Notes: generated from the letters alone by a model not told the origin. Shown: positions 34,414 through 51,617, numbered from the stretch's first letter. The stretch is 64,000 nucleotides of DNA from an uncultured delta proteobacterium (GCA_963813785.1 CAWFAJ010000002.1:7654-71653); one strand, 5' to 3'. Program-made: numbers and translations.

Positions 34414-35706
34414 ATGGCCAAGCATGCACTGGGGAAGATATTGCTGGGCGTGGGAATGTTAATGCTCTTATGTCTCAGCGTGGCATCAACAAATGCGGCG
34501 GTGAAGCCAGGTGACACCATAACACCTGAAAACGCGGCGCAGGTCAAAGATCTGGTTTCGCCCGGCGTGTATTACGCGGTGACTCATGGAATGCACATGG
34601 AGATCGTGCCCCCCGAGCGGATCGACTGGCCACCGCCTTACAGGGAGGCGACAGAAAAATATTCCTCGCAGGCGCGGCTCAGTAACGATCATCGCAGCTT
34701 GGTCGGCTACGTCGCCGGCCAGCCGTTTCCGTTGATCGATCCTAACGACCCCTATGTGGGGTCGAAAGTCATGTGGAACAACGTGTTTCGGCCCATGTCG
34801 AGCGATGACTACGACCTGCGCTTCTACGATTGCCAGAGCCAGTACGTTCGTCCGGGCCAGGACCAGAACGTGATCGAGGACTTGGAGATCGGTCATTACG
34901 CCGGATACAACCTGTTCGGACGGACCGAGGTCGAGCCGATGCCGGTCGATCCCGACTTTAAACAGTCGGGGCGGATGTGGCTATTCAGTCTATACCCCGT
35001 GCTTTCGCCGGCGGACCAACGCGGCGTCGGAATAGTCCGCTATCGCTACGTGGATCCGAACCGCGGCGACGACACCTGGGATTGGCAGCCCGGCACCCGT
35101 CGCGTGCGGCGCCTGAACGAGGCGATAAACAGCAGCGCGACGGGAGCGCAGAGCTTCGACCCCGACCATTATGCAGGCTTCAACCCCAAGACCGAGCAGT
35201 ACAACTACAAGTTCCTGGGTGAGAGGCAGATGCTCGCGAGCGTGCATGCGCAGCATTCGCCCGAAGATACTTGCCCCTACGATGGCGGTGCGACCGCATG
35301 CCCCGAGGCTTGGGAGATGCGCGACGTATACATCGTCGAGGCGCTGCCCCGGCGCGATTCGAACAATCCGGGTGCGCTCGACAAGTTGACCAACGTCTAT
35401 GTGGACACCGAATTAGGCTTCAACCCGTATATCGACACTTACGACCAGAAAGGTCGTTTGTGGCGCTCGCACATCTACTGGCTGACCTATCGCGACCGCC
35501 CGGTGCCCGATGCCCGCGTGGCGATCTACCCGTTCAAGCGGGAGTTCATAGTGGGTGCGGCCTCGATCGACATGCAGGCCAACTTCTCGACAATGTGTTA
35601 CCTGCCCGGCCAGCACACGCCTGAGCGCGAATGCTGGTACGTCAACATGGGGGCGGTCGATAAGGATTTCTGCTCGGTGAAGGCGATGGTGGCCGCAGCT
35701 CCTTGA
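34414..35706 (+). CDS. DUF1329 family periplasmic protein (LolA-like fold), copy 1
   Basis: Signal peptide, then the motif block QPFPLIDPNDPYVGSKVMWNNVFRP that I recall from DUF1329; 430 aa. Confidence 0.65.
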   Translation: MAKHALGKILLGVGMLMLLCLSVASTNAAVKPGDTITPENAAQVKDLVSPGVYYAVTHGMHMEIVPPERIDWPPPYREATEKYSSQARLSNDHRSLVGYVAGQPFPLIDPNDPYVGSKVMWNNVFRPMSSDDYDLRFYDCQSQYVRPGQDQNVIEDLEIGHYAGYNLFGRTEVEPMPVDPDFKQSGRMWLFSLYPVLSPADQRGVGIVRYRYVDPNRGDDTWDWQPGTRRVRRLNEAINSSATGAQSFDPDHYAGFNPKTEQYNYKFLGERQMLASVHAQHSPEDTCPYDGGATACPEAWEMRDVYIVEALPRRDSNNPGALDKLTNVYVDTELGFNPYIDTYDQKGRLWRSHIYWLTYRDRPVPDARVAIYPFKREFIVGAASIDMQANFSTMCYLPGQHTPERECWYVNMGAVDKDFCSVKAMVAAAP

Positions 35707-35923: not shown

Positions 35924-37219
35924 ATGGCCAGGCATGCTTTGGGGAAGATATTGCCGGGCGTGGCGACGCTAACACTCTTGTGTCTCATCGTGGCGCCAGC
36001 AAATGCGACAGTGAAGCCGGGGGACACCATAACGCCCGAAAACGCGGCGCAGGTCAAAGACCTGGTTTCGCCCGGGGTGTATTACGCGGTGGCTCATGGA
36101 ATGCACATGGAAATCATACCTACCGAGCGGATCGATTGGCCGCCGCCTTACAGAGAGGCGACGGAAAAGTATTCCTCGCAGGTACGGCTCACTAACGATC
36201 ATCGCAGCATGGTCGGCTACGTCGCCGGCCAGGCATTTCCGCTGATCGATCCGAACGACCCTTATGTAGCGACGAAAATCATGTGGAACAACGTGTTCCG
36301 TCCGATCAGCACTGACGACTACGATCTGCGCTTCTACGATTGCCAGAGCCAGTACGTTCGTCCCGGCCAGGAACAGAACATCATCAACGACATCGAGATC
36401 GGTCATTACGCCGGGTACAACCTCTTCGGACGGACCGAAGTCGAGCCAATGCCGGTCGATCCGGACTTCAAGCAGTCGGGGCGCATGTGGTTGTTCGCTC
36501 TCTATCCGCTGCTCGCGCCGCAGGAATCGCGCGGCCAAGGCCTGATCCGCTATCGCTACGCGGATCCGAAACGCGGCGACGACAGCTGGGATTGGCAGCC
36601 CGGCACCCGTCGTGTGCGGCGCCTGAACGAGGCGATGCTCTCCACCGCGACCGGTGCGCAGAGCTACGATCCTGATCACTATTCAGGCTTCAACCCCAAG
36701 ACCGAGCAGTACAACTACAAATTCCTGGGTGAGCGGCAGATGCTCGCGACCGTGCATGCGCAGCATTCGCCCGAACAGACTTGCGCTTATGATGGCGGTG
36801 CAACCGCATGCCCCGAGGCTTGGGAGCTGCGTCACATGTACATCGTCGAGGCGACACCCCGGCGCGATATCGGCGAGGCAGGCAGCGCGCTCGACAAGTT
36901 GACCGACGTCTATCTGGACACCGAATTATGTTTCGAGCCGTACGTCGACACCTACGACCAGAAGGGTCATTTGTGGCGCGCGCACATCTACTGGCTGGCC
37001 TATCGTGACCGCCCGGTGCCCGATGCCCGCGTGGCGATCTACCCGTTCAAGCGGGAGTTCGTGGTCGGCGCAGCTTCGATCGACACGCAGGCTAATTTCT
37101 CGACAATGTGTTACCTGCCCGGCCAGCACACGCCTGAGCGCGAATGCTGGTACATCAACATGGGGGCGGTCGATAAGGATTTCTGCTCGGTGAAGGCGAT
37201 GGTGGCCGCAGCTCCTTGA
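35924..37219 (+). CDS. DUF1329 family periplasmic protein, copy 2 (tandem paralog, about 80% identical to copy 1)
   Basis: Colinear with copy 1 over its full length. The upstream intergenic region is also duplicated. Confidence 0.65.
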   Translation: MARHALGKILPGVATLTLLCLIVAPANATVKPGDTITPENAAQVKDLVSPGVYYAVAHGMHMEIIPTERIDWPPPYREATEKYSSQVRLTNDHRSMVGYVAGQAFPLIDPNDPYVATKIMWNNVFRPISTDDYDLRFYDCQSQYVRPGQEQNIINDIEIGHYAGYNLFGRTEVEPMPVDPDFKQSGRMWLFALYPLLAPQESRGQGLIRYRYADPKRGDDSWDWQPGTRRVRRLNEAMLSTATGAQSYDPDHYSGFNPKTEQYNYKFLGERQMLATVHAQHSPEQTCAYDGGATACPEAWELRHMYIVEATPRRDIGEAGSALDKLTDVYLDTELCFEPYVDTYDQKGHLWRAHIYWLAYRDRPVPDARVAIYPFKREFVVGAASIDTQANFSTMCYLPGQHTPERECWYINMGAVDKDFCSVKAMVAAAP

Positions 37220-37512: not shown

Positions 37513-38559
37513 TCAGACCTTGAAGCGGATGTGAATCATGTCGCCGTCGCGCATCACGTAGTCGCGGCCCTCGAGTCTGAGCTTGCCGGCTTCCTTGACC
37601 TTCGCGTCGGACTTGTGGATGGCAAAATCCTCGTAGCTGACAACTTCGGCCCGGATGAATCCGCGCGCGATATCTGTGTGGATTACGCCGGCGGCATCGA
37701 GCGCCGACTCGCCGCGGCGCAGCGGCCATGCATGCGCCTCGGGTTCGCCGGCGGTGTAGAAAGTGATCAGCCCGAGATGGTTGAAGAGCGCGCCGATCAG
37801 CCGATCGCGCGCGGGCGCGTCGAGTCCCGCGTCCTTGAGCATCTCCTTCTGGCCGGCCTCGTCGAGTTCCCACAATTCCGACTCGAAAGCGGCCGCGAGC
37901 CTGAACACCTCGAATCCGTGCGCGCGGACCGCGGCGCGCTCGGCGTCGGTGACATCGGCGGCCGCGCGTTCCATCTCGCAGTTGACGGTGACCAGCGCGG
38001 GCTTTCGCGAAAGAAACCCGAAGCTCGAAAATGCCTGCGCTTCCTGCGCCGTCAGTTCGAGCAGTCGCAGCGCTTTGCCGTCGCCGAGCCATGCGATCAC
38101 TTTCTCGAGCGCCGCGCGTTCGAAGTCGCTGCCGCCCTTCTCCTTCTTCAGCCGCTCGAGGCGGCGTTCGGCTTGATCGAAGTCGGCGAACACCAGCTCG
38201 CCCTCGATGCTTTCGAGCGTCGCGACCAGATCTTTTTCCATGCCGGCGAATTGCGGAATCACGATCAGCAGCGCGTCCATGTCGCGCACCAGCGGCAGCA
38301 GACTCGGATCGAGCGCAGCGCCCTCCTTCTGCTCTTTGGGATTTGGCGCGAAGTCGAGGATGGTGAGCTCGACCGGAATCTTTTTCTTCGAACCGTACGC
38401 CGATTCAAGAAAATCCAGACGCGGATCCGCGACCTTGATTTGTCCCGGGCGCGCACGATTGCGGCCCTCGGCCGCGCCCGCAATCGGCGCGAGTCCTGTC
38501 AGTGCGTGAAATACGGTTGATTTCCCGGCGCCGCGTGCGCCGATGATCCCGGTCTTCAA
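37513..38559 (-). CDS. ychF: YchF/Obg-family GTP/ATP-binding protein with a C-terminal TGS domain
   Basis: P-loop GARGAGKST. C-terminal block (IHTDIARGFIRAEVVSYEDF...EAGKLRLEGRDYVMRDGDMIHIRFKV) aligns with E. coli YchF. The G1 motif is divergent. Confidence 0.75.
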   Translation of the reverse strand: MKTGIIGARGAGKSTVFHALTGLAPIAGAAEGRNRARPGQIKVADPRLDFLESAYGSKKKIPVELTILDFAPNPKEQKEGAALDPSLLPLVRDMDALLIVIPQFAGMEKDLVATLESIEGELVFADFDQAERRLERLKKEKGGSDFERAALEKVIAWLGDGKALRLLELTAQEAQAFSSFGFLSRKPALVTVNCEMERAAADVTDAERAAVRAHGFEVFRLAAAFESELWELDEAGQKEMLKDAGLDAPARDRLIGALFNHLGLITFYTAGEPEAHAWPLRRGESALDAAGVIHTDIARGFIRAEVVSYEDFAIHKSDAKVKEAGKLRLEGRDYVMRDGDMIHIRFKV

Positions 38560-38764
38560 TTGCTCCCACCTCGATCCCGGGGATTCTACACCACCGCAAT
38601 TCGCGAGTAAGCCCTTCGCCCACCAGCGTCGAGGCGTGTCGCGCTCGGCGCAAATGCGCCTGAATCGAGATCGCGTTCCCGCCCGCCCCCGCCCGCCGAG
38701 TCTTTCTCGGCAGCGCCGGCTTCGCTAATCTGCTATTCCCGTCGGCGGAGCAGCGCGATGGAGA

Positions 38765-38840
38765 GCCACCCTAGCTCAGTTGGTAGAGCAGCTGATTCGT
38801 AATCAGCAGGTCGCCGGTTCGAATCCGGCGGGTGGCTCCA
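38765..38840 (+). tRNA. tRNA-Thr (anticodon CGT)
   Basis: 76-nt cloverleaf. Acceptor stem GCCACCC/GGGTGGC, D-arm GCTCAGTTGGTAGAGC, anticodon loop TTCGTAA, T-arm GCCGGTTCGAATCCGGC, CCA end encoded. Confidence 0.85.
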
Positions 38841-39187
38841 AACAAAACCCCACGCGCAGAGCCACAATCTGAATCCGGCCGGTTTCCGGCGTAGCTCTGA
38901 ATCAGCTCTTAGGCAACCCCTAGGCAACCGACCGGCGTTGCCGGCACCGGCGGGATAGGCGGAAGGTTGATTGCGGAAAAACTTGGTCGGTGGGAAGCAG
39001 AGCGGGGAGCGGTGCGTCGAGAATCTCCTGCAAGAGCCGCCGAACCGTCTTGGAAAGCGTCCGGGACGGCTTGCAGTGGGCCACCGCTACCACCGCGAGG
39101 GGCCACGACGGTCAGACTGGGACCGAGTTGACGCTGGAGCGGCTATCCGGCTAAAACTCTCGTGGTTGCAGAGTCAAAATCGAAATT

Positions 39188-39235
39188 CCGGCTGAGACGC
39201 GGCAGAACTTCGGCGCCGAACCCGGTCGAGCGACC
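39188..39235. repeat. direct repeat A (LLM-family gene C-terminal relic) flanking the cytochrome gene
   Basis: CTGAGACGCGGCAGaACTTCGGCGCCGAAcccGGTCGAGCGA. The minus strand encodes ...GFGAEVLPRLS. Confidence 0.6.
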
Positions 39236-39312
39236 GCCACGCCGGCGAATGACGACTACGTTGCGTCCCAAATGTGCGGATTGGCCTGCTTGTCTTTACG
39301 TGAGGATTTGCG

Positions 39313-41511
39313 ATGAAACTGCAGCATCGACTGATTTCCTGCCGCGAGCGAGTCGCAAGACAAAGCACCTGGCGGTCAATCCTAAGAATCCATGCCTTGG
39401 CACTGCTGGCGTGGGGGTTTGCTGGCTCGCCGAGCGCATTGGCGTTCGACGTAAAGAGCGCAAAGCTGATCGATAAGGGTTTCAAGCTTTTCACCCAGGA
39501 AACATTCAAGGGCAACGGCCGTACCTGCTCAACCTGCCATATACCCAAGGACGACTACACGATCAGCCCGGCGGATTTTCCCACGCTGAGCGCCCATGAC
39601 AGGAACCTCGTGCTGGCGACACACAATTCGCAGCTCGAAAACCAGAACTTGGTAAATCAATTCGCCCTGTTCAACATCACTAACGAAACGCCGGCCGCGA
39701 GCGGAAATGGTACCACGCCGACCGGTCCGTTCCGCGCCTCGATGCAGCTAAGCGGATTGGCGCTCACCACGCTGAACGACTGCCCGAATGCGACATTGAT
39801 TGCGGCGGCCACCGACACCGGCGCGACCGCCGAGATCACAACCGTCACGCCTCCCCTCTTCCCGTTTGTGGTAAACGAACTCGTAAGAATCGAGGGAGTC
39901 AGCGTCGCCGGCTACAATGGCAGTACTTTTGAGATCTCCAGCGTAATCAGCCCCACCACATTCCAGTACACGACGTTGACTGGAGCCGATATCACCGGAC
40001 TCCCCTCGGCAGGGCCCGGCGGCGGTGTCAGCGGGCTGCCCACTCCACCGACTACTACTACCGGGTCGGGAGTGTGTTCCACTGCGCCTAATTTCGTGAC
40101 ATCCCCAACCACCACAGGCACCCGGTTCATAGAGCTCGGTTGGGCGGGAGACGGCGCACCCGTCGACCCCACGCTTTTCGAAGTTGGCAAACCTCGCGAC
40201 TACGCGGATTGCGTAACCTCCGTCAACAACGCTAATTCTAACCCCAACGTCCTCGGCCCGGTGTTGAATGCGTTCTCGACCGGAGCCGTCAGGCACCATT
40301 TCACGCGCACCAATTCCCGCGTGCCTGGAAAGGATTTCCGCTGCCCGACCTCCGCTGAGTTGAATGCGCTGGCGGCATTTCAAGAGTACCTCGGGCGCCA
40401 ATTCCCATCTGGTACACCTCTCGAACTCGCCTTGGAAGGAGGAACAACTTTCCCGGGAACACAAGTCAGCTCGTTGCAGCCCGTGATCACCTTTAACGAT
40501 TCCACGGCGGAGACGGGCAAGGCGATATTCTTGAATCCGAGCGCGGCTTGCAATTTCTGCCACTTCAATGGCGGCGCGAGCATGAGTACAACCCAGGTAA
40601 AAACGGAGCCGTTAGGAGACCCGCCGCTGCCGTTTCCCGGTCGCAACGAGAACAACTCGCAACTCGTGAACGTCTTAACCGACACCACCTTTATTATTCC
40701 GTCAACCGGACAGACGGTCACTGGCGGGCTTGACGGCTTGACGCCGGTGACCATTGGCAATGATCCCGGCGACGGAACTCCTTTCAGCGACAAGCATGGC
40801 GGGTTCATACCCATATTCAACGTCCAGTCAATTATAGAAGCGCCGCGCAAAAAGAGTTTTTTCCACAATGGTTCCTTCACTACCAGCGTGGAGGACGCGG
40901 CGTCGTTCTACTTTGGTAACCCTACGGTCAATATTTCGGGCAGCACACTCATCACGCCCGGTTTCGACCTCGCCAACGGCAATTTCGCGGTTGGCACCAA
41001 CCAGGACGGCTCACTAGTTACCGTCGCGTCAGGGTTGCCAAACCCACTGCCAAGAGCAGCCGGGGGAGAAACCGGCACCCAAGCCCTTGTGCAACTTGCC
41101 GGCACCTACTTTCCTTCCGATTCGGTGGCCGGCAACGTGCTGACTTCGCCGGGTGGGCAGGACGTGCTCAACACGCTTGGGTTCTTCCTGAGGGCGCTCA
41201 ACGTGGTTTACAGCATCGCCGATTGCGAGCGGCTGGTGGACGATACGGTCAGCCGTCTCCATGCGGGCTTGCCGACACAGGTGCCGGTCCTCAACTGCAC
41301 CACGGACTTGGGCGATGTGGACCGCGTCATTGCGGGCGCGCGTGTGACCGTGCCGGACAACTACCTCGCCGTCCAGACGCAGGCGCAGGAACTCCAGGGC
41401 CAGTTGAAGAAGTATGCCAAGCATGGCAATCGCGTGAAGTTGATAGGGATTACTAACCAGCTGAAAGCCATGAGGGAGTCGATTGCATCGATCTCGCCAG
41501 ACCTGCCGTGA
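39313..41511 (+). CDS. di-haem c-type cytochrome, CCP/MauG-like, with a large Thr/Gly-rich insertion
   Basis: Signal peptide. First CxxCH sits in the CCP-type context FKGNGRTCSTCHIP. A second CxxCH (AACNFCHFNGG) lies about 370 aa later, against about 145 aa in canonical CCPs. 732 aa in total. Confidence 0.55.
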   Translation: MKLQHRLISCRERVARQSTWRSILRIHALALLAWGFAGSPSALAFDVKSAKLIDKGFKLFTQETFKGNGRTCSTCHIPKDDYTISPADFPTLSAHDRNLVLATHNSQLENQNLVNQFALFNITNETPAASGNGTTPTGPFRASMQLSGLALTTLNDCPNATLIAAATDTGATAEITTVTPPLFPFVVNELVRIEGVSVAGYNGSTFEISSVISPTTFQYTTLTGADITGLPSAGPGGGVSGLPTPPTTTTGSGVCSTAPNFVTSPTTTGTRFIELGWAGDGAPVDPTLFEVGKPRDYADCVTSVNNANSNPNVLGPVLNAFSTGAVRHHFTRTNSRVPGKDFRCPTSAELNALAAFQEYLGRQFPSGTPLELALEGGTTFPGTQVSSLQPVITFNDSTAETGKAIFLNPSAACNFCHFNGGASMSTTQVKTEPLGDPPLPFPGRNENNSQLVNVLTDTTFIIPSTGQTVTGGLDGLTPVTIGNDPGDGTPFSDKHGGFIPIFNVQSIIEAPRKKSFFHNGSFTTSVEDAASFYFGNPTVNISGSTLITPGFDLANGNFAVGTNQDGSLVTVASGLPNPLPRAAGGETGTQALVQLAGTYFPSDSVAGNVLTSPGGQDVLNTLGFFLRALNVVYSIADCERLVDDTVSRLHAGLPTQVPVLNCTTDLGDVDRVIAGARVTVPDNYLAVQTQAQELQGQLKKYAKHGNRVKLIGITNQLKAMRESIASISPDLP

Positions 41512-41577
41512 CACAGAATTGTGAGATCGAGAGCCCTCGGGCAACTCCGGGGGGTTTCTTTTTCCCGCATCGCGGCT

Positions 41578-41625
41578 ACCTGAGACGCGGCAGGACTTCG
41601 GCGCCGAAGCGGTCGAGCGAGCGTC
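41578..41625. repeat. direct repeat B (second LLM C-terminal relic)
   Basis: About 42 of 45 nt identical to repeat A. The minus strand encodes MIELIVVPQLPGLDPAKARRSLDRFGAEVLPRLR*. Confidence 0.6.
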
Positions 41626-41990
41626 GCGCCTTGGCGGGATCGAGCCCCGGCAACTGCGGCACGACGATAAGCTCGATCATTGGGGTAATTGAAGCTGCCG
41701 GTGATGACGGTCGCACCGTTGACGACCATGACCTTGTTGTGCATCAGACCCGGCACAAAGTATCCACGAGGTCAGGTACGCCGGCTGAAACAAGGCGCCC
41801 CACGGCCTAAGTCTCGCCTTAGGATAACCGCAATCCCGATAATCGCGAAAAGGACTGGACGTAGCAGAAACCCGGTAACGACAACAAGCAAGATTACACC
41901 CGCCCAGATCACAAGAATCTCGTGGCGCACTAAGGTCCACCAGAAGTGGTGGGCAATCAGTAAGACGGGCTTGTCAGAAGAGATCACGTA
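41580..41990 (-). pseudogene. possible internally deleted relic of a phospholipase-D / cardiolipin-synthase-like gene
   Basis: ORF 41772..41987 encodes two hydrophobic helices typical of a Cls N-terminus. Fifteen bp downstream, in another frame, is an HKD-like motif: HNKVMVVNGATVITGSFNY. Confidence 0.35.
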
Positions 41991-42392
41991 GAGGCCAGGC
42001 GGTGTACCGCCTCCGGGCCGATATGTCGCCTCAAGCCGAACACAACCGCGTGGATTCAGATTTAGCTTTCAAACGAGAGTCCGCCATTGTCCGCACCGTA
42101 GAAGAGTCCCGCTCTAATAGCCTTCTTCAAGTGAGAAGAAAATTCCGGTTAGGTTGATAATATCCCGCGTAAGCAAAAAGCGTGAGTTTCTCATATCCGC
42201 AGCGATCCGGCGCTTCGAATCGCTGCCAATCGGCTTCCGACTCGTCGAGGAAGTCCGCGTAGCTCTGATCGACGAGAAGGCGGCGGTGAGGTGTTTGCGC
42301 CGCTTTCGAAGTTTTGAGAAGGCACAGGTCAACATATTCAACAAGGATTTACGCTGCGCGGGCAAAATGCGGTGCGATCCGGGGCGCCTTCC

Positions 42393-43366
42393 TCAGGCCG
42401 TGCGCACCGCCCAGAAGATGCCGTAGTCGATCATTCCCAGGCGCAGTGCGCGATAGGACCGCGTCACGTGCTCGTGGACGTTGTCCAAGTCCACTCCCGC
42501 GCGCGCCCTCACGTACCCTTTGTACATCCGGTAGAGCGGCGGGGTCTCAAAGAAGAGCGCGAAGATGCGGCAGTACTGTTCGAAGTAGCGCAGATTCTTC
42601 GCGGTGCAGATCTCCGCTTCGCGAAGCGTGAAGCCGGCCTTGGTGATCTTCGCACGATAGCTGTGGATCGTCTCCAGATAGGGCACGTCCCATGCCTCGA
42701 GGAAGCTCCTGTAGATCCGGCGATTTCTCTCCGAAGCGTTGACGACCCGATCTACCACCAGCAGATCGGCGAATGCGAATGCTCCGCCCGGTTTGAGCAC
42801 CCGCGCAGCTTCTTTTAGGAACTGGCCCTTGTCCTTGAAGTGCGCGGGAGCCTCGATTGACCACGCAAGCGAGTATTCTCGATTGCGCACTGGTAGCTTC
42901 AGCGCGTCTCCTTCGGTGAATCCGACGTGCCCTGGCGAAATCTTCCGGGTGGCGCTGTTGCGGTTCGCACGCCGAACGTTGAATGGAGTGAAGTCGAGGC
43001 CGAGTACGTCCAACCCGTATTTTTTGTGCGCACGAATCGCGGGACCACCACGCCCCGAGGCGATATCGAGGAGACGCGGGGGATCGTCACCCTTGTAGGG
43101 GCCGGTGTTGTGAAGAGCGAGCAGTCCCTCAGCAATCCGATCGATCAGGCGAAGATGAGCCCTTTTGCTCCAGTGACGCTGGCGCGAATCTGAGTATCCT
43201 ATGTTCAGGTAGGTACCGAGATCCGACCACTGGCCCAGGAATCGATATAGATCCGAGTGCGAATTACCATAGCTGTAGTGCCGGCGGACGTCATCATCGA
43301 CCCAATGCTCGTTCCTTATCGCGGACGCGTCCGGGGCGCCGGCGGGGCTATTCCTTGCGCGCATTG
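42393..43366 (-). CDS. class-I SAM-dependent methyltransferase (cyclopropane-fatty-acyl-phospholipid / mycolic-acid synthase-like)
   Basis: SAM motif I LLDIASGRGGP; CMAS-family C-terminal region. Start chosen at MRARNSP (43366); the track ORF extends further upstream. Confidence 0.7.
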
Positions 43367-44793
43367 CCAATCTGCCAGTGGCGGGCCAGTTTCGTAGGAA
43401 TTTGAAAGGGTGGCCGATCGCCCCCGCGCTCCGACAGATGCAGGCCTTCCGCCATCCTGCGAAACAGCCATTCCGCCGCGAGCCGGATCGGCGGTAGCTG
43501 ATCGATGTCTTCGGCATCGAGATGGCGCAGGCCTCCGGCCTTCAGTAAATCCTGGAAAACGGTTGCAGCCCAGTCGAGGTCGATTCCGGCCAGGCCCGCG
43601 ACGCCGGTGCCGATCCGATGTGCATGGGTGAGACCGCGGAGCATCTGCAGGCCAAGGGTGTCTTTCCAGTCAAGGCGCAGCCCAATTGCGCCCGCGATCT
43701 TCGAGCTAACCAGTTCGCGGGTGATTATACGCGGGATGCGGCGCAACGGCTCGAAGGTCTCGGGAACAAAGTCCTCCATGTACTCGAGCAGCGCCTTCTC
43801 CAACGATCTGCCCTCGTTGGTTCTGGCGATGACGCCGGGCCTCAGCCAGATGCGCTCGTATAGCTCCTGCGCCTCCTCCATCGACTCTTGGCCCTTGGGA
43901 AGGAGCATTCTGTCATCGACACCCATGATCGCGCCCACGACGTTCCAGCAGTGAAGATATGCTTTTTCTTCGAAGTGGGTGAGATCGACCCCCAACTTGC
44001 GAAGACTGCGAAGCACTACGTAGGAGAAACTCAGGATCGCCATGCTCATGGCAACTTGGTTAGCCGGCTCGCCCCACTCTTGTTCGTGCCAGCGCATCTG
44101 CAGGAAGGCGTTTCCGAGTTCAGATCCCGGTTTGCCGTTGGCGGGCATTTTGGTGGGCTGCTGCTTGATCAGATATCTGATCGCGGCGTGCATCAGGCGC
44201 ACCTTTTGCGCCGCCTCGACGCCTTCGTCGCTCAAGCCTTGCACGTTGTCTTCGCGCTCTTGCATCAGGTTGACCACAAACAGGGATGTTTCCCACAGGC
44301 GGCGCTGGGTGTGACTCAGGAGTTGCTGCGTCATTCCCAAAACCTTTGCGCCATAGGAGGTGGCGTAGGATTCCGGCAGACTGGCGCATCCCAAGATTGC
44401 AAAGGCAATCATACCGTTTTGTCTAAAGACGCGCTGGCCGGTCGCAATCAGCTCTGGCTCAGCCCAAGGTACTATTCTTGTGTCGTCGAGGTATTTGTCC
44501 AGGAGTTCGCCAACTTTCTTGCGATCGCCGGGACTAGAGCCTTTAAAGGCGTCGGTCAGCTTGCTTCTGAAATGTCCGATTCTCTCATGTTGAATCATGT
44601 TGCGCAGTAGGTCCGCGAGCAGTGGCAGTCCACCTTGAGTCTGCTGCGCGACCTTGGTCACCAAAGCGTCTGCCAGGTCGTCCCCCTTCCGACACATCTC
44701 GTCAATAAGATTTTCGCTCCATCCTTGTGTCTGCTCGATTTCCTGCCTTCCTCTCCCTCTTGCTTTTGCTCGATCGCGGGCTCTTTTTGGCAT
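43348..44793 (-). CDS. DUF2236 (MpaB/oxygenase-like) family protein
   Basis: 481 aa, all-helical, with a central block VRLMHAAIRYLI that I recall as the DUF2236 core; the family assignment is tentative. Confidence 0.45.
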   Translation of the reverse strand: MPKRARDRAKARGRGRQEIEQTQGWSENLIDEMCRKGDDLADALVTKVAQQTQGGLPLLADLLRNMIQHERIGHFRSKLTDAFKGSSPGDRKKVGELLDKYLDDTRIVPWAEPELIATGQRVFRQNGMIAFAILGCASLPESYATSYGAKVLGMTQQLLSHTQRRLWETSLFVVNLMQEREDNVQGLSDEGVEAAQKVRLMHAAIRYLIKQQPTKMPANGKPGSELGNAFLQMRWHEQEWGEPANQVAMSMAILSFSYVVLRSLRKLGVDLTHFEEKAYLHCWNVVGAIMGVDDRMLLPKGQESMEEAQELYERIWLRPGVIARTNEGRSLEKALLEYMEDFVPETFEPLRRIPRIITRELVSSKIAGAIGLRLDWKDTLGLQMLRGLTHAHRIGTGVAGLAGIDLDWAATVFQDLLKAGGLRHLDAEDIDQLPPIRLAAEWLFRRMAEGLHLSERGGDRPPFQIPTKLARHWQIGNARKE

Positions 44794-44805
44794 CCTCGAT
44801 TCCCT

Positions 44806-47800
44806 CTACATGGTTGCCGATTCCGTCAGGAGCGCCTTGGCGTCCTTAAGATCGGGCGTATCGAATCCCTCGGTGAACCAACCGTAAACCGACTCCAAAG
44901 TCTTGCGAGCCGATTGCGGATTGCATTGTTTGCGCTTGAGACGGTAAAGGCTCATCGCGGTCCGCAGCTCCCATGACTTCGCGCTCTGGCGCCGCGCGAC
45001 TTCCAGGCTCTTCATGAAGGCTGCTTCCGCACTCGCCTCCTGCGGACGGGTCAGCGCGAGCAAAAGCGCGCCTTTAAGCCGGTACAACTCGGCTTCGTAG
45101 TATTCCTCGCGGGTGCTGGCAACCTCGGCGAGACCCTCGCTGATGGCTTCGAGGCCTTGCTCAGGGTGGCCGGACTTCGCCAGCGCGTCGGCCAGCAGTC
45201 CTTGCTGATGAGGGCCTGTCACGGGGGCTCCCAAGGCGCGACATGCGTCCTTCGCGCCACGCAGTACAGCTACAGCCTCCTCAGACTGCCCGAGCTGGTT
45301 CAGCGCCCATCCGAGGCTGAATCGAGTAGCCAACAAGAGGAAGGCGAATCCATGCTCCGTCGAGAGGGCGAGACCTTCATCAGCGAGTTGTTTGCCCAAT
45401 GGAATGTCGCGGAGCAACTGGCAGAGGGCGGCCCCGTACGTCTTGGCGTACGCAAGACTGAATTTGTGAGACAGCCCGCTAGCCAGCATGAAGCAGTCGC
45501 GCTGCCTTGAAAGCGCTTGTTCAGGATAGCCTTGAAACCACAAGATCCAAGGCAGAACGGAGCCCGCGACGATACCGGGGTCCTGACCGTAGGCCAGCGC
45601 ATGGCCTTGGTGACTGCGCGGATCGTAAATCGACAACACTTTCTCGAAATGGGAGCGCGCCCGGGCAAGATCGCAGCCTCCGTAGAATGCGTTCTGTCCG
45701 CTCACTGCATGCGCTTCCAGAAGCAGATCCGGGTCGCGCTGACGTTCGGCCAGACTCAGAAGCTGACGGCCGATTTCCTGGGAGTCTCGATACTCGGCGC
45801 GGACGAGATAATAGCCCCACAAGCCATAAAGCACCGGGTAAAGCTGCGGAGTATCTCCGAATCCGGCGCATAGTTCGCGCGCGCGGCTGAACGCGCCCTC
45901 CACATCCGGCGACGAGTAACCCTTCGCGAACATCAACGATTGCCCAAGGTTTAACTGCAGACCAAGTTCCAACTGATCGCGCTGCGGGCCGGCGGCGATC
46001 GCCGGCAGCAATTCCAGACCTGAAGTGAAATGAGCTATTGCGTCGGCATAGGCGGAGCGTGCTGCTACCTTCTGCCCGGCCAGGTAAAAGTACGGTGCGG
46101 CTTTGTTCGCGTCGGACCCGCGTGAGTAGTGGCGCGCGAGCTCTTCGACGTAATCGTCTAAGTGATTGGCAAACGTCGCCTCGATCGCTTCACCGATGCG
46201 GAGGTGTAGCGCCTTGCGCCGTTCGGCAAGCACCGAGCCGTAGGCCACTTCCTGCGTCAGCGCGTGTTTGAAGACGTATGCGGCATCGGGGAACGTCGGC
46301 AGCTCGTGGATGAACTCCGCCAATTGCAGGCTGGCGAGCATTCGCTGGAGATCCTCACCGTCCGTCGCCGCGACCTGCTCGATCAGGGCGAGTGGAATTT
46401 CCTTGCCAATCACCGCGAGCGTTTGCAGCAATTCCTTTTCCCTGGGGACACGCCGGTCGATGCGCGAGGCAAGTATTCCCCGAACGGTCGGCGGGATACG
46501 CAACTCCGCCAGCGGCTTCGCGAGTCTCACGGCGCCATCGCGCACCAGTGCGCTCTCTTCGAACATCGATTGGACGATCTCCTCCATGAAAAACGGATTG
46601 CCATCGGTCTTTTCGACGATGAGCCGTTTCAGTCCGGACAGGTCGTCGTCGCCGTGCTTTGCAGGGGCGGATCGGGAACCGTCCGCCGCCGCGAACACGC
46701 GCGCGTGTCGGGCGTCTTCGCGTTCGCCACTGTGCTCCTGGTCAGGCAGAGGAAAGGAAGTGTCGAGCAGCGCGGACAGCATCTCCTCGGCGCTGTCCTT
46801 GCCGAGCGGATCGAGCCGCAGCTGCGTGTAGTAGGTCTTGCTTCCCCATTCGTGGTGATACTCGGGGCGATAGTTGACCAGCAGCAGAATCCGCGTGTTG
46901 GCGATTGCCTCTGCCAACATGTTCAACAGTGCCTGGCTCTCGCCGTCTATCCAGTGCAGGTCTTCGAAGATCAGCATCATCGGCTGCTCGCGGCTCTCGC
47001 GCAGCAGCAGGTTCTTCACCGCTTCCAGGGTTCGCCGTCGTTTGAGCTGCGGTTCCATCCCCGCGAGCGTGTTGCTCTCGTCCGTCACGCCGATAAGCGC
47101 AAACAGATAAGGGAGGGTTGTTTCCAGGGCGCGGTCCAGGGTCATCACCCTGCCGCTGACCTTCTCACGGCGCTTGCCATGGTCGTCTTCGGGCGTGATT
47201 TCGAAATAATCTCTGAGCAAATCAACCACCGGCAGATACGCCGGAGCCTTTGCGTGGGAGACCGAGAAGGTTTCGAGCAGCATCCAGCCCGACTGATTCC
47301 TGGCTTTGAACTCGTGGAACAGGCGCGATTTGCCGACTCCGGGCTCGGCCATCGCCGCCACGATTTGTCCGCGCCCTTGCTTTGCAAGCTCCGCGGCATG
47401 CGTCATCGCCTCGATCTCGCGCTCGCGTCCGACGAACTTCGTGAGTCCGCGTCCCGCTGACCGCTGCAGTCGGGTGCGCAGCGGTCCCAGCCCGGTAACT
47501 TCGTATACCTCGACCGGCTCGCTGATGCCCTTGATGCGCGCGGGGCCAAGCGCCTTCAGCGTGAAGTACCCCTCGACCAGCTTGCGGGTCGCCTCGGTGA
47601 TCGCAGTTGCACCAGGATGGGCCAGGGTCTGCATTCGCGCGGCGAGATTGGCGGTGTGTCCAATCGGCGTGTACTCGACATTGCCGCCGCCGGTGGCAAT
47701 CGAGCGCACCACGACCTCGCCGGTGTTGATTCCAATCCTGATCAGCAAGGGCGCGCGGCCCTCTCCCTGGAGCCTCTCTCCGTAGCGGCGCAGCTCTTCC

Positions 47801-48300
47801 TGAATGCGCAGCGCCGCATAAAGCGCACGCTGCGGATGGTCCTCGTCCGCGATCGGTGCGCCGAACAGCGCGAAGATGCCGTCGCCCGTGGACTGCACTA
47901 CGTAACCGTCGTACCGATGGACCGCATCGATCATGAGCTTCAACGCTGGGTCAATAATCGCGCGCGCCTCTTCCGGATCGAGGTCTTCCTCCAGTGCGGT
48001 GGAGCCCTTGATGTCGGCGAACAGCGCCGTCACGGTCTTGCGCTCGCCGTCGACGACGAGCGAGGAATCCGATTGCTCCTGCGTAACAAGGATGCCGGAC
48101 GCGGCGGGTTCGGTTATAGAAGCTTTAGGCGCATTCGCTGCAGCCGTGTCGACGAGAGTGGCTCCGCATTCTCCGCAGAACTTCTCGCCGGGTTCGTTGG
48201 ATGCGCCGCAGCGCGTACAGCTGGTCGAAATCGGAGCGCCGCATTGCGCACAGAATTTGCGCCCTCCCCGGTTCTCACCTCCGCATTTCGTGCAACGCAT
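44806..48300 (-). CDS. multidomain signalling protein: double zinc-ribbon, class-III adenylate/guanylate cyclase, STAND/AAA ATPase and TPR repeats
   Basis: N-terminal CxxC x4. Cyclase-domain motifs FADIKGSTAL, VQSTGDGIFALFGAP, IRIGINTGEVVV. P-loop AEPGVGKSRL. A long helical TPR-like C-terminus. 1164 aa. Confidence 0.85.
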   Translation of the reverse strand: MRCTKCGGENRGGRKFCAQCGAPISTSCTRCGASNEPGEKFCGECGATLVDTAAANAPKASITEPAASGILVTQEQSDSSLVVDGERKTVTALFADIKGSTALEEDLDPEEARAIIDPALKLMIDAVHRYDGYVVQSTGDGIFALFGAPIADEDHPQRALYAALRIQEELRRYGERLQGEGRAPLLIRIGINTGEVVVRSIATGGGNVEYTPIGHTANLAARMQTLAHPGATAITEATRKLVEGYFTLKALGPARIKGISEPVEVYEVTGLGPLRTRLQRSAGRGLTKFVGREREIEAMTHAAELAKQGRGQIVAAMAEPGVGKSRLFHEFKARNQSGWMLLETFSVSHAKAPAYLPVVDLLRDYFEITPEDDHGKRREKVSGRVMTLDRALETTLPYLFALIGVTDESNTLAGMEPQLKRRRTLEAVKNLLLRESREQPMMLIFEDLHWIDGESQALLNMLAEAIANTRILLLVNYRPEYHHEWGSKTYYTQLRLDPLGKDSAEEMLSALLDTSFPLPDQEHSGEREDARHARVFAAADGSRSAPAKHGDDDLSGLKRLIVEKTDGNPFFMEEIVQSMFEESALVRDGAVRLAKPLAELRIPPTVRGILASRIDRRVPREKELLQTLAVIGKEIPLALIEQVAATDGEDLQRMLASLQLAEFIHELPTFPDAAYVFKHALTQEVAYGSVLAERRKALHLRIGEAIEATFANHLDDYVEELARHYSRGSDANKAAPYFYLAGQKVAARSAYADAIAHFTSGLELLPAIAAGPQRDQLELGLQLNLGQSLMFAKGYSSPDVEGAFSRARELCAGFGDTPQLYPVLYGLWGYYLVRAEYRDSQEIGRQLLSLAERQRDPDLLLEAHAVSGQNAFYGGCDLARARSHFEKVLSIYDPRSHQGHALAYGQDPGIVAGSVLPWILWFQGYPEQALSRQRDCFMLASGLSHKFSLAYAKTYGAALCQLLRDIPLGKQLADEGLALSTEHGFAFLLLATRFSLGWALNQLGQSEEAVAVLRGAKDACRALGAPVTGPHQQGLLADALAKSGHPEQGLEAISEGLAEVASTREEYYEAELYRLKGALLLALTRPQEASAEAAFMKSLEVARRQSAKSWELRTAMSLYRLKRKQCNPQSARKTLESVYGWFTEGFDTPDLKDAKALLTESATM

Positions 48301-48558
48301 TACCTAGCCCATCAACTGACTTCGGGCGCGCCCACCCGAATTATTAATTCGAAATTTCCGATTTAACGCCTCGGGTCTGAATACTCATAGCTTGCCGCGC
48401 GCGCTTTAGCGCAAAGGGCTGGGCCTTACACGCAGTTTAGGTCCGGGCTCGGCCACGCCGGGTCCGATTCCGCCATTCCGACCTGGCCGAAACCTTGCTA
48501 CGATGCATGCGCGGCCGACCTGCAGCGACACACACTCTGCGAGTGCGAGGCGATCGAA

Positions 48559-49233
48559 GTGGCGCCATTTCTGACAATCAAGCGTGAGACAGACCTCATT
48601 GCACTTGCTGCCTTTATTCTTGCATTCGGAGCGGTGACCTATCAGGTCACGGCGTATTTTCGCGGCGCGAACGTAAAGCTATTTGGACCTGAGCAGATAT
48701 TGATCCATGGCGATAAATATCCTGACGGCGAAACCTACGTCCGGTTCGCGGCTCGAATGTCGTATCTAAACTCCGGCGACATCGGCTACAACGCTGTAGT
48801 CGGTCATGAGTCACTACAGATCCAGATTGATAAGGGCCTTTACAGGCAGACATGGCAATATTTCATTCACTCTAGTTCTCCGGACGGTCAGACGCTGAGT
48901 TTGGGAGATCAGGTTGAAGCCGTCCCGACTCCGATAAATGGGGGAGATGCCAAATCACATGAGACTTACTTTGCTCCATGGCCTATCGACTGCAAAAGCA
49001 CCGTCGGCGCCGATTGCAGACCCGGCGCGAATTTCCTGCCGTGGGACACCTTCCTGAATTCGATAAAGTCAGGGGACGTTCTCAAATTTGAACTCATAGC
49101 CGACATTTTTGGAAGCAAGGCTCAAATGGTTACTTGCACGGTCGATGTAGATGATGCACTGATCGCGCAGCTAAAGACTACGCCGAACAAGTGGAGTGCT
49201 CCTGCCTGCCGGGAAGCTTTGTCCTCTCAGTAG
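48559..49233 (+). CDS. hypothetical membrane-anchored protein in a lower-GC islet
   Basis: One N-terminal TM helix and a 190-aa Cys-containing ectodomain. Local GC is about 50-53%, against about 65% in the flanks. Confidence 0.45.
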   Translation: MAPFLTIKRETDLIALAAFILAFGAVTYQVTAYFRGANVKLFGPEQILIHGDKYPDGETYVRFAARMSYLNSGDIGYNAVVGHESLQIQIDKGLYRQTWQYFIHSSSPDGQTLSLGDQVEAVPTPINGGDAKSHETYFAPWPIDCKSTVGADCRPGANFLPWDTFLNSIKSGDVLKFELIADIFGSKAQMVTCTVDVDDALIAQLKTTPNKWSAPACREALSSQ

Positions 49234-49591
49234 GACTCGATTCGACCCTCATTCAGTCGCGCTCGAATCCGCGTTTGACCCGCTTTCCATGCAACGACGG
49301 ATAGTCCGCAGGGCTCAGAATCGACTGCCAAACGACTGCCGATCACGACCGAACAGGACCGATCACCACCGACCTCGATTCTGACAAAATCCCCGTGTCG
49401 CGCGGGTGTTGCTGCGTCGTGATCGATGGTGATCGCCCCGGGACTCGTTGCTGGTCAGCGGCGCCATGTGAATCCCCTGTCGTACAAGGGGTTCAACGTC
49501 AATTATGATCGTCTATGATCGAAACCACCGGGAAATAGCCTATGACCGATCTGTCATAGACAGGTGACACACGATTTGAGATAAGCGCAGT

Positions 49592-50701
49592 ATGACACCG
49601 CTCGAACGCGTACACGTTGGTCTGATTGGTTGCGGGCGCATCGCCAGCCTGCAGGTCCTGGGCTATCGCGATCACCCGCGCGCGGAGCTGACAGCAATCT
49701 GTGACAACGACGAAGCGCTACTAGGTCAGCGACAGCAGGAGTGGCAACCAAAGAAGACCTATCGTGACTATCACCAGCTTCTCGCCGACTCCGACGTGAA
49801 CGCCGTGGAGATCCTGATACCACACCACTTGCATCGCGAGGTCGCCATCGCCGCGTTGCAAGCAGGCAAGCATGTGTCGTTGCAGAAGCCGCCGGCGTTG
49901 ACGCTCCGCGAACTCGGCGACGTGAATGAAGCGGCGAAACGTGCGGGACGCCGGCTGCGTGTCTTCGAGAACTTCATGTACTATCCGCCGCACGTCAAGG
50001 CGCGCGCGCTGATCCAGGAAGGCGCAATCGGTGAGCCCATCTCGGTGCGTATCAAGACGGCGGCCGGACGTTTCGATGACGGCTGGCGGGTGCCGGCCAC
50101 GTCGCTGGCGTGGCGCATGAATCCGGAAACCTGCGGTGGCGGCCCAACCTGCTTCGACCACGGCTACCATTGCTACAACATGGCGCGCTTCTTCGTCGCC
50201 GAGCCGGTCGAACGCGTGCACGCGTGGATTCACGTCAACCGGTTTGGATCGGACGCTTTCTACGACGGGCCCGCTTTGATCAGTTGGAAGTACGCCGGCG
50301 TACCCAAGTTCGGCAGCTGGGAAGTGATCGCGTCGGTGGGCATGCGGGTACGCTCGAAGTACTACGCCAGTGACGACCGCATCGAAATCCACGGGACCGA
50401 GGGCATCATCTGGATCAACCGCTGTACCGGTTCGCTTCTCGACGAGCCTGCGCTGGTCCTGTATCGGGACGGCCAGACGCGCGCCTGGCACGACATTCCA
50501 AACGACTGGTCGGAAAGTTTTCGCCTCGGCGTGCACGATTTCATCGACGCGTTGATTGAAGGCCGCCAACCCCCACAGGATGCCGGCGATGCAGCGGCAA
50601 CGCTCGGCTTCGCCATAGCAGCCCACGTCTCGGCCTGCGAGCACCGCGAAGTGCGTCTCGACGAGATCGGGCCGGACACCAGAGCGCGACTCCCGATCTG
50701 A
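49592..50701 (+). CDS. Gfo/Idh/MocA family oxidoreductase
   Basis: N-terminal Rossmann motif VGLIGCGRIA. Confidence 0.85.
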   Translation: MTPLERVHVGLIGCGRIASLQVLGYRDHPRAELTAICDNDEALLGQRQQEWQPKKTYRDYHQLLADSDVNAVEILIPHHLHREVAIAALQAGKHVSLQKPPALTLRELGDVNEAAKRAGRRLRVFENFMYYPPHVKARALIQEGAIGEPISVRIKTAAGRFDDGWRVPATSLAWRMNPETCGGGPTCFDHGYHCYNMARFFVAEPVERVHAWIHVNRFGSDAFYDGPALISWKYAGVPKFGSWEVIASVGMRVRSKYYASDDRIEIHGTEGIIWINRCTGSLLDEPALVLYRDGQTRAWHDIPNDWSESFRLGVHDFIDALIEGRQPPQDAGDAAATLGFAIAAHVSACEHREVRLDEIGPDTRARLPI

Positions 50702-50786
50702 CTGGCTGTCCGTCCCGAGAACTCGTGCGGGTGCTTTTTTCCGGGACGATATCCGCCAGTCTCGCGTCCAGCCGCGTGAGGATCGG

Positions 50787-51617
50787 CTATCGCGCTGCCG
50801 GCGCCAGCATCGCGAGCGCGATTTTGTGCAGCTCGCGGTCGCCGGCGGCGACTATCTGCCCGCCGTCATATGGCGGCCCGCCCGACCAGCTCGTCACGAT
50901 TCCGCCTGCGGCCTCGATGATCGGGATGAGCGGTTGGATATCGTAAGGCTGGAGGCTCGATTCGATCACCAGATCGATGAAGCCCGCGGCGAGCAGGCAG
51001 TACGAATAGCAATCGCCGCCGTAGCGCCTCATCCGCGCCTTGGACGCGAGCCGGCGAAACGCGTCGCGTTCGCCCGGACCCGAGAACATCGCCGGATCGG
51101 TTGCGCAGACGATCGCGTCTTCCAGCCGCCGGCATTCGCGCACCCGCAGCGTGGTGCTTGGGCCGCGACCCCTCAGTTCGGCGCCCAGCCGTGAACCGAC
51201 GAACGTCTCGCCCGTGTACGGCTGATGCATCACGCCGATCACCGGTCGCGCGCCGTCGTTGAGTGCGATCAAAACGCCCCAATGCAGTTGTCCGATAATG
51301 AAGGCGCGCGTGCCGTCGATCGGATCGATGATCCAGGTCAGCGCCTCGCTGCCGGGCGCGAAGCCGTGCTCCTCGCCGAGGATTCCGTGGCCGGGATGGA
51401 CGCGGTGAATCTCGTCGCGGATCGCTCGCTCGGCCCCGCGATCGGCGAGCGTCACCGGGTCGTAGCCGCTGCCGCCTGCCTTATTCTCGACCGCGAGGCG
51501 CACGCGAAAATACGGCAGGATCGTGCGTCCCGCCAGATCCGCCAGATGGCAGGCAAAGGCGGCGTACTCTTCGATCGCGCGATCGTTCATCGTCGGCATA
51601 GGCTGCTCTGCTCGCAA
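50787..51617 (-). CDS. inositol-monophosphatase family protein (possibly histidinol-phosphatase HisN-like)
   Basis: Metal-binding motifs WIIDPIDGT and GGDCYSYCLLAAGFID. Confidence 0.7.
   Translation of the reverse strand: MRAEQPMPTMNDRAIEEYAAFACHLADLAGRTILPYFRVRLAVENKAGGSGYDPVTLADRGAERAIRDEIHRVHPGHGILGEEHGFAPGSEALTWIIDPIDGTRAFIIGQLHWGVLIALNDGARPVIGVMHQPYTGETFVGSRLGAELRGRGPSTTLRVRECRRLEDAIVCATDPAMFSGPGERDAFRRLASKARMRRYGGDCYSYCLLAAGFIDLVIESSLQPYDIQPLIPIIEAAGGIVTSWSGGPPYDGGQIVAAGDRELHKIALAMLAPAAR

Follow-up and report, generated by a model that had tools for sequence, protein, structure and literature searches.

Genomic islands that enter tRNA genes by means of a tyrosine integrase are inserted exactly at the 3' end of the tRNA gene, are absent from close relatives and carry mosaic cargo, with the integrase gene next to the tRNA gene and partial copies of the latter at the far end. 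Segments bracketed by direct repeats that were copied from the sequence adjoining one end are the scars of Campbell-type (single-crossover) integration or tandem duplication. Among the di-haem enzymes, the MauG/BthA/MbnH branch (PF03150) is distinguished from the canonical cytochrome c peroxidases (CCPs), which are about 320-350 aa long. A locus that can be compared with each of these systems lies downstream of a tRNA-Thr(CGT) gene in a 64,000-nt stretch of DNA from an uncultured delta proteobacterium (GCA_963813785.1, CAWFAJ010000002.1:7654-71653), referred to here as the window, with positions counted from its first letter. There, a gene for a di-haem cytochrome stands between two short direct repeats derived from the 3' end of a gene encoding an LLM-class flavin oxidoreductase. 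With a probability of roughly 0.7, this is a relocated cytochrome module which brought its flanking repeats along from its former locus and now resides in a decayed 11.9-kb island at the tRNA-Thr gene of a Candidatus Binatus genome. The locus is an ordinary island mosaic and the cytochrome represents an uncharacterised branch of a known enzyme superfamily; neither the genome biology nor the enzymology overturns current understanding.

The organism of the window is a member of Candidatus Binatus (Binataceae). A search with the YchF protein returned 80 loci, nearly all from Candidatus Binatus, Binataceae or unclassified (delta)proteobacterial metagenome-assembled genomes, the closest at 99% protein identity, and 1.77 Mb of fetched Binataceae DNA served as the comparison set. 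The homologs of the cytochrome number at least 77 in a collection clustered at 90% identity, and contigs were fetched for the closest ones; eight independent loci (the window, L001, L002, L003, L005, L006, L172 and L173) were used to compare the surroundings of the gene. One further locus, L004, is a 99% twin of the window, and L005 carries the nearest relative of the window cytochrome gene (95.5% DNA identity).

The window is homologous to its closest relatives up to 38840-38846, that is, to the 3' end of the tRNA gene, and again from 50772-50778. In two relatives, L009 and L013, a few bases (AACAAA in L009) separate the tRNA-Thr gene and the sequence that begins in the window at 50772/50778, at 94-95% identity over 2.3-5.8 kb, so that a gene of the inositol-monophosphatase family directly adjoins the tRNA gene. 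These are empty sites, and they define an 11.9-kb insertion in the window, from 38847 to ~50770. The initial annotation of the window had predicted an empty site composed of tRNA-Thr and an intact LLM gene; with an inositol-monophosphatase gene in that place, the LLM gene never needs to have stood at the tRNA.

The same annotation had taken the adjacent tRNA gene for a sign of an integration hotspot, and this was borne out: synteny breaks at the 3' end of the gene, and relatives carry islands with integrase genes there. In L010 and L011, a gene for a 449-aa tyrosine recombinase (Phage_integrase, 65 bits) ends about 70 nt past tRNA-Thr; it belongs to the same element as a C-terminal remnant in the window, which is recognisable as the integrase relic of the island. 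The islands of several relatives start with the same integrase C-terminus, and L017, L021, L041, L046 and L068, as well as L014, have islands of 0.6-4.6 kb with partial copies of the tRNA 3' end (32-50 nt) at their boundaries. The tRNA-Thr(CGT) gene beside ychF is a recurrent integration site across Binataceae and a real hotspot. The islet originally outlined around the cytochrome gene, on the other hand, comprises only the first third of the decayed island, whose content includes the cytochrome mosaic, the integrase relic and methyltransferase, MpaB-like, cyclase/AAA_16, orf224 and GFO_IDH_MocA genes (Pfam for the cargo). The insertion exactly at the tRNA 3' end, its absence from close relatives and its mosaic cargo agree with the known tRNA-linked islands, from which the window differs in that 57 nt of its integrase gene survive, it lacks the distal tRNA repeat, and foreign fragments, including the cytochrome module, lie between the tRNA gene and the integrase relic.

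The two repeats around the cytochrome gene are identical at 46 of 51 nt in their aligned core (39192-39243 and 41580-41630; ~90% identity), slightly better than the 42 of 45 nt first reported. They consist of a block with 28 of 29 nt identical (39192-39220 vs 41580-41608) and another with 18 of 21 (39223-39243 vs 41610-41630), with a 1-nt indel between them. When up to three mismatches are allowed, the 29-mer occurs twice in the 64-kb window and not at all in 100 shuffles. As had been noticed, both copies read ...GAEVLPRL on the minus strand, within open reading frames (ORFs) 39143-39271 and 41576-41716. The attribution of the repeats to an LLM gene was likewise correct, and the right copy is assigned this origin by its similarity to a complete relative: positions 41579-41686 (minus strand) match residues 301-336 of the LLM protein of L002 with 83% identity (tblastn, E 2e-13), and that protein scores 208 bits against the Pfam model Bac_luciferase. 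Moreover, window positions 39278-41686 are collinear with L002 7921-10331 at 85% identity (blastn) through the cytochrome gene, an intergenic hairpin and 111 nt of the LLM gene, an arrangement shared with L001, L006 and L172. The right-hand ORF, described earlier as having 34 codons, comprises 46 codons from a GTG, 36 of them homologous to LLM. Orthologs in L174 and L175, which lack the cytochrome gene, have the same LLM tail at 80-82% identity.

The left copy resembles the LLM tails of other lineages at the DNA level only, with 76-86% identity, compared with 90% to the right copy of the window; it has lost the LLM stop codon through a 4-nt deletion and reaches CCGG at 39188, in alignment with the 3' ends of the L174 and L175 LLM genes. 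No other LLM paralog matching the repeat was found in the 1.77 Mb of Binataceae DNA, Pfam and NCBIfam gave no match for the short relic ORFs, and a Protein Data Bank (PDB) search with the 46-aa peptide of the LLM relic yielded only spurious matches to SLX4 (E 0.5). The repeats are without present function.

The locus from which such a module could have come is preserved in L001, L002, L006 (with L007 and L008) and L172, in which the cytochrome gene shows ~85% DNA identity. Here three collagen-repeat genes precede the cytochrome gene, which is followed by the hairpin and then, in the opposite orientation, by the LLM and SDR genes. L002 and L006 have a complete LLM gene (336 aa); that of L001 is split by a frameshift, and that of L172 runs off the contig end. 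Past the SDR gene, all these loci except the short contig L172 have Rieske and cupin genes. The LLM ortholog sits in this SDR-LLM locus, elsewhere than at the tRNA site. Across the 1.77 Mb, 11 instances of the hairpin motif, CCCCGG(3-10 nt)CCGGGG, were counted, always beside the cytochrome gene, and a related hairpin follows the LLM gene in L174, without a cytochrome gene, which indicates that this flank is native to LLM.

The upstream region of each cytochrome gene was compared with its own downstream flank by local alignment with shuffled controls (null scores 10-11 +/- 1.3). Copies of the 3' flank stand upstream of the gene at seven of the eight loci: the hairpin in L006 (score 32), L172 (31), L002 (27) and L001 (24); the hairpin with the LLM stop codon and tail in L173 (39); the LLM stop codon and tail in L003 (22); and the LLM tail in the window (38; null for this locus 11.2 +/- 1.3). 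In the window and in L003, the LLM relics are equally far from the start codon (-121 to -70 and -131 to -90, respectively). Since the copies recur at seven loci in varied contexts, the duplication is old, travelled with the gene and was not made at the tRNA site, so that the repeats cannot be taken, as they had been, for the footprint of a local insertion. The limits of the insertion, 38847 and ~50770, do not fall at the repeats (39192 and 41580) either. We conclude that the duplication spanned ~120 nt, from about +5 after the cytochrome stop codon to ~57 nt into the LLM gene, and that it predates the split of the cytochrome lineages, between which dS is ~0.45. The segment is bracketed by direct repeats copied from the sequence adjoining one end, as in Campbell-type scars, but here the duplication is only ~120 nt long, old, partly eroded and, in the window, moved off its locus of origin.

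We infer the following order of events. The former locus would have had the order collagen-like genes, cytochrome, hairpin, LLM, SDR, the LLM gene being a convergent neighbour of the cytochrome gene. The ~120-nt duplication would have set one copy of the flank on each side of the cytochrome gene before the lineages diverged, after which the parts of the upstream copy that survived would have differed from lineage to lineage. In the lineage of the window, a piece reaching from the upstream LLM tail to LLM nucleotide 111 would have been excised and have landed between the tRNA gene and the remains of the integrase gene, where it now stands beside other gene fragments. The module itself (39249-41575) contains a single gene: it comprises the intact cytochrome gene, its own upstream region and the terminator hairpin.

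Several observations speak against this history. L005 is the only one of the eight loci without an upstream copy of the flank: exactly 61 nt (39188-39248) are missing there, with the preceding sequence, segment S, joined directly to 39249. Given the relics in L003 and L173, this absence would be better read as a deletion in L005 than as an insertion in the window. With 90% identity, the two copies of the window are closer to each other than a duplication preceding the radiation would lead one to expect, and decay has gone much further in the upstream copies of L003 and L173; the likeness calls for gene conversion or for a later re-integration driven by homology. A pre-duplication locus (collagen gene, single hairpin and LLM, without the cytochrome gene) was not recovered, L174 and L175 holding other genes in that place. 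The last 25 nt of the tRNA, with three mismatches allowed, are not repeated anywhere in the window, which means that the distal attachment site (attR) is absent. Finally, neither the origin of the spacer that follows the tRNA gene nor the source of segment S is accounted for.

The explanation given in the initial annotation, in which the cytochrome gene entered an LLM gene next to tRNA-Thr and the repeats are the duplicated target, is barely credible. It is true that the repeats are direct, bracket the gene and derive from LLM, and that the tRNA gene is a hotspot; yet the empty sites of L009 and L013 lack LLM, the inserted DNA amounts to 11.9 kb with limits away from the repeats, the LLM ortholog has its own locus, and the flanking duplication is present at other loci too. 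If instead the left copy were young, produced after the split from L005 by templated insertion or gene conversion of 61 nt from the downstream LLM tail, both the direct junction of S with 39249 in L005, which bears no trace of the 61 nt, and the closeness of the two window copies would follow. The relics of L003 and L173 would then have to be independent, although the former carries the LLM stop codon and tail at the same distance from the start codon, the latter has the hairpin, stop codon and tail upstream, and four further loci have the hairpin part; because it is improbable that several lineages independently received this flank at one and the same position, this reading is quite unlikely.

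A more mobile version of the story is that of a repeat-flanked cassette, in which recombination between the flanks frees a circle with one copy, and the circle re-enters either through homology to the LLM 3' end, producing fresh repeats, or illegitimately. It would explain the 90% identity of the window copies, and it fits the finding of the cytochrome gene in at least five different contexts. L173 resembles a circular permutation of the unit (left end at about +7 of the 3' flank, right end at about +4 to +10), and in L003 the gene is flanked by a second, unrelated repeat of 72 nt; together these two loci hint at a rearrangement-prone module. Neither a circular form nor a tandem array was seen, however, the segment in the window exceeds one unit, extending to LLM nucleotide 111, no two loci share their breakpoints, and ordinary rearrangement with island decay explains the data without a dedicated mechanism, for which no direct evidence was found; we regard the cassette as doubtful. 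Transport of the cytochrome gene by an IS110-family element is highly improbable. It was suggested by L005, in which segment S, directly upstream of the cytochrome gene, borders on a transposase gene of the IS110 family that is truncated and frameshifted. The element (L005 7856-8891, truncated at ~7908) is plentiful in soil metagenomes, where at least 80 loci (L092-L171) carry it at 65-100% protein identity; their homology with L005 spans only ~7908-8853, ending at ~8840-8853. Segment S, considered as the right end or guide-RNA region of the element, is missing from the 80 related copies and is thus flanking DNA; an exact 31-mer of it had no match in metagenome contigs. The window itself contains no IS110 sequence, whether transposase (DEDD and Transposase_20) or element ends, the transposase being found in L005 only.

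The relocated module with inherited repeats offers a worked example of how relic repeats beside a tRNA gene can mislead: they are real and gene-derived, and yet they record an older event at another locus.

The cytochrome encoded by the module contains, as originally described, two CxxCH motifs (C72-x-x-C75-H76 and C413-x-x-C416-H417, invariant in 36 homologs) and a Thr/Gly/Pro-rich linker. Its assignment to the CCP/MauG type held for the fold. The Pfam model CCP_MauG, a search named beforehand as a possible refutation, gave no match for the window cytochrome at E <= 1, and NCBIfam gave nothing; weak matches at E <= 0.1 appear in 19 of 36 family members (best 2.2e-5), and in a sample of distant profile matches two more remote relatives pass the cut-off of 25.6 bits (P0136 with 35.5 and P0182 with 28.2). 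Against PDB sequences, the family profile matches BthA (E 1e-3) and MbnH (E 1.1e-3), with each of the two haem motifs aligned to its own counterpart in MbnH. The aligned portion comprised 215-269 residues. The protein has the two-domain di-haem CCP/MauG fold. It shares with MauG, BthA and MbnH the order of the two CxxCH motifs, the GNG..C..CH context at haem 1, the FFHNG...FY motif and an N-terminal export signal; the N-terminus resembles a Sec signal by inspection (...ALLAWGFAGSPSALA/FD), and the cytochrome is predicted to be exported.

The haem histidines are 341 residues apart, compared with ~150 in MbnH, so the size first proposed for the inter-haem insertion was about right. The ~190 additional residues include a beta-barrel of ~85 residues (~160-242) and the Thr/Pro/Gly linker. 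Much of this insertion is conserved across the family (ELGWAGDG, AVRHHF...RVPG.DFRCPT), and only ~105 residues are clade-specific. A second addition is a four-helix bundle of ~140 residues at the C-terminus (~588-728), confidently modelled. The beta-barrel was the sole part matched by Foldseek in both structural models, weakly, to E1 FCCH and endosialidase barrels; the first AlphaFold2 model, built from 36 sequences, was rejected as too poor (mean predicted local distance difference test score, pLDDT, of 59). The window protein further departs from MauG, BthA and MbnH in escaping the Pfam model and in having no conserved partner or substrate gene next to it: none, such as a mau operon or mbnP, was found across six contexts, in which the neighbours are collagen-like or unrelated genes. 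The architecture, first described as one not seen in bacterial CCPs, proved not to be unique. Among 1.84 billion representative proteins the family profile finds 1419 at E <= 1e-3 and 787 at E <= 1e-10, so that the family has at least 787 clusters at 50% identity at the latter threshold. It is a large uncharacterised branch of di-haem peroxidase/MauG proteins, common in the uncultured soil phylum Binatota.

An invariant tyrosine, Tyr533 (FFHNG...SFYF), aligns with position 397 of the BthA chain 6nx0_A in a borderline profile match (E 1e-3 overall, domain E 0.011). The first haem histidine at chain position 126 is His192, which sets an offset of 66 from the published numbering and makes position 397 BthA Tyr463. 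In BthA, Tyr463 is an axial ligand of the six-coordinate haem and MauG uses Tyr294, whereas in canonical peroxidases, including the CCPs of Pseudomonas, Nitrosomonas and Shewanella and YhjA, this haem has His/Met ligation (PMC6405878). With a tyrosine at the aligned position and a length of 732 aa, the window protein is unlike the canonical CCPs. As far as sequence comparison suggests both the haem ligation and the enzyme function, a MauG/BthA-type oxidising role with a His/Tyr-ligated haem would be likelier for it than that of a canonical peroxidase detoxifying peroxide. The moderate confidence of the structural model (mean pLDDT 70.7) and the borderline alignment behind the proposed tyrosine ligand detract from this assignment. 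The predicted Tyr-ligated haem and the two extra domains make the branch a possible target for expression and spectroscopy.

The ratio of nonsynonymous to synonymous substitution rates (dN/dS) between the window cytochrome gene and those of the old-type loci is ~0.2, indicating a constrained gene, and the cytochrome is probably still functional. Between the window copy and that of L005 (9120-11318), both relocated, dN/dS is 0.52, at small distances (dS 0.073), and may reflect relaxed constraint after relocation. Two bolder readings are that the cytochrome gene with its duplicated flanks would be a recombinase-free mobile cassette among Binatus genomes, leaving through its own repeats and re-entering by homology at the widely conserved LLM 3' end, and that its product would be a new MauG-like protein-modifying oxidase, with the products of the three collagen-like genes just upstream at the old locus as its original clients; these proposals are speculative and improbable.

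Table 1. Annotated features of the tRNA-Thr island and its borders (window coordinates).
Feature	Position	Strand	Remarks
ychF	37513-38559	minus	Precedes tRNA-Thr
tRNA-Thr(CGT)	38765-38840	+	ARAGORN; Rfam 72 bits; attachment point of the island
Spacer	38841-38993		Found only in the window and L004
Decayed genomic island or islands	38847-50770		~11.9 kb without counterpart in L009 and L013
Segment S	38994-39187		Common to the window and L005 only (86%); precedes the cytochrome gene in L005 too
Left copy of the LLM 3' end	39188-39248	minus	CCGG and ~57 nt of LLM tail, 61 nt in all; encodes ...GFGAEVLPRL
Upstream region of the cytochrome gene	39249-39312	+	GGAGGA before ATG; alignable at all cytochrome loci from ~39249-39272
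Di-haem cytochrome	39313-41511	+	Intact ORF, 732 aa
Terminator hairpin and T-run	41534-41563	+	Between cytochrome gene and LLM relic; copies flank the cytochrome gene in relatives
Right copy, relic of the last 36 codons and stop of the LLM gene	41576-41686	minus	Homology to relatives ends at 41686
PLD-type fragment	41682-41756	minus	HKD-like motif (HNKVMVVNGATVITGSFN); joined to the LLM relic, begins where LLM homology stops
Hydrophobic ORF, 71 aa	41772-41987	minus	No credible family match (Pfam, NCBIfam)
Tyrosine integrase, C-terminal relic	42218-42274	minus	VDQSYADFLDESEADWQRF; 57 nt, 19 codons; rest of the gene gone
Longest methyltransferase ORF	42393-43517	minus	170-nt overlap with the oxygenase ORF
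MpaB/Lcp-like oxygenase ORF	43348-44793	minus	170-nt overlap with the methyltransferase ORF
Distal-end-like stretch	49314-49449		78% identical to the far end of the L068 island, which abuts a 49-nt partial tRNA-Thr copy
Inositol-monophosphatase-family gene	50787-51617	minus	First gene past the island; directly adjoins tRNA-Thr in L009 and L013

The remaining features of the island are collected in Table 1. The tRNA-Thr(CGT) gene is the sole tRNA gene of the window according to ARAGORN and Rfam, and an Rfam scan of 38600-42500 found nothing else. An inverted repeat (38866-38884 and 42044-42062, 16 of 19 nt) was considered as the ends of an island or transposon and rejected, since about one such pair is estimated to arise by chance per 5 kb. 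The relic of a gene for a PLD or cardiolipin-synthase-like protein, proposed to lie downstream of the right repeat, is there in part: the PLD-type fragment scores below the Pfam thresholds (PLDc_2, 22.6 bits with a cut-off of 27, E 1e-4; PLDc, 15.5 bits with a cut-off of 21.9), has Asn in place of the Asp of the HKD motif, has no match in NCBIfam and is probably a gene relic. The idea that the 71-aa ORF beside it is the N-terminus of a cardiolipin synthase was not confirmed, and tblastx found no homologs of the fragment or of this ORF in the 1.77 Mb of Binataceae loci. The lower GC content reported downstream of the cytochrome gene is real, being 0.52-0.55 at 41800-42400 compared with ~0.60 nearby.

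Towards the far end of the insertion, the GFO_IDH_MocA gene (49592-50701) lies past the stretch that resembles the distal end of the L068 island, yet within the 11.9 kb, which suggests two islands in tandem. An eroded attR at ~49450-49475 was rejected, since its alignment with the tRNA is at chance level (score 8, null 8.1). The distal-end-like stretch contains CTGCCAAACGACTGCCGATC, which resembles CTGCCAAATCGCTGCCAATC at the integrase end of islands, and the two may be candidate arm-type binding sites of the recombinase. The MpaB/Lcp-like oxygenase ORF, of 481 aa, is intact in the window and split into 249 and 224 aa in L004; its overlap with the methyltransferase ORF indicates that the latter probably starts later (323 aa in L004).

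Some observations concern the other cytochrome loci. A second region that varies among Binataceae lies between a GRDB-family gene and the LLM gene: in L002 (5157-10154), as in some other genomes, it holds the three collagen-repeat genes and the cytochrome gene, in L175 (9159-12161) a gene for a 1000-aa MmeI-like methylase/restriction protein, and in L174 (9069-14168) unrelated ORFs. Of the 72-nt repeat of L003 (7800-7871 and 10253-10324, 89% identity), the right copy is located within the 5' portion of a gene for a PMT_2 glycosyltransferase and the left copy at the end of a 102-aa ORF, and the cytochrome module of this locus may have been inserted into the PMT_2 gene. The gene for a 531-aa protein upstream in L173 was considered as a tandem paralog of the cytochrome gene and rejected, as the two show no similarity.

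It is also worth noting that 4-5 kb are inserted between ychF and tRNA-Thr in L013 and L014, so that both sides of the tRNA gene are variable. Upstream of ychF, the window carries two tandem paralogs of a DUF1329 (LolA-like) gene (34414-35706 and 35924-37219), the copy number of which varies, from one to three in relatives.

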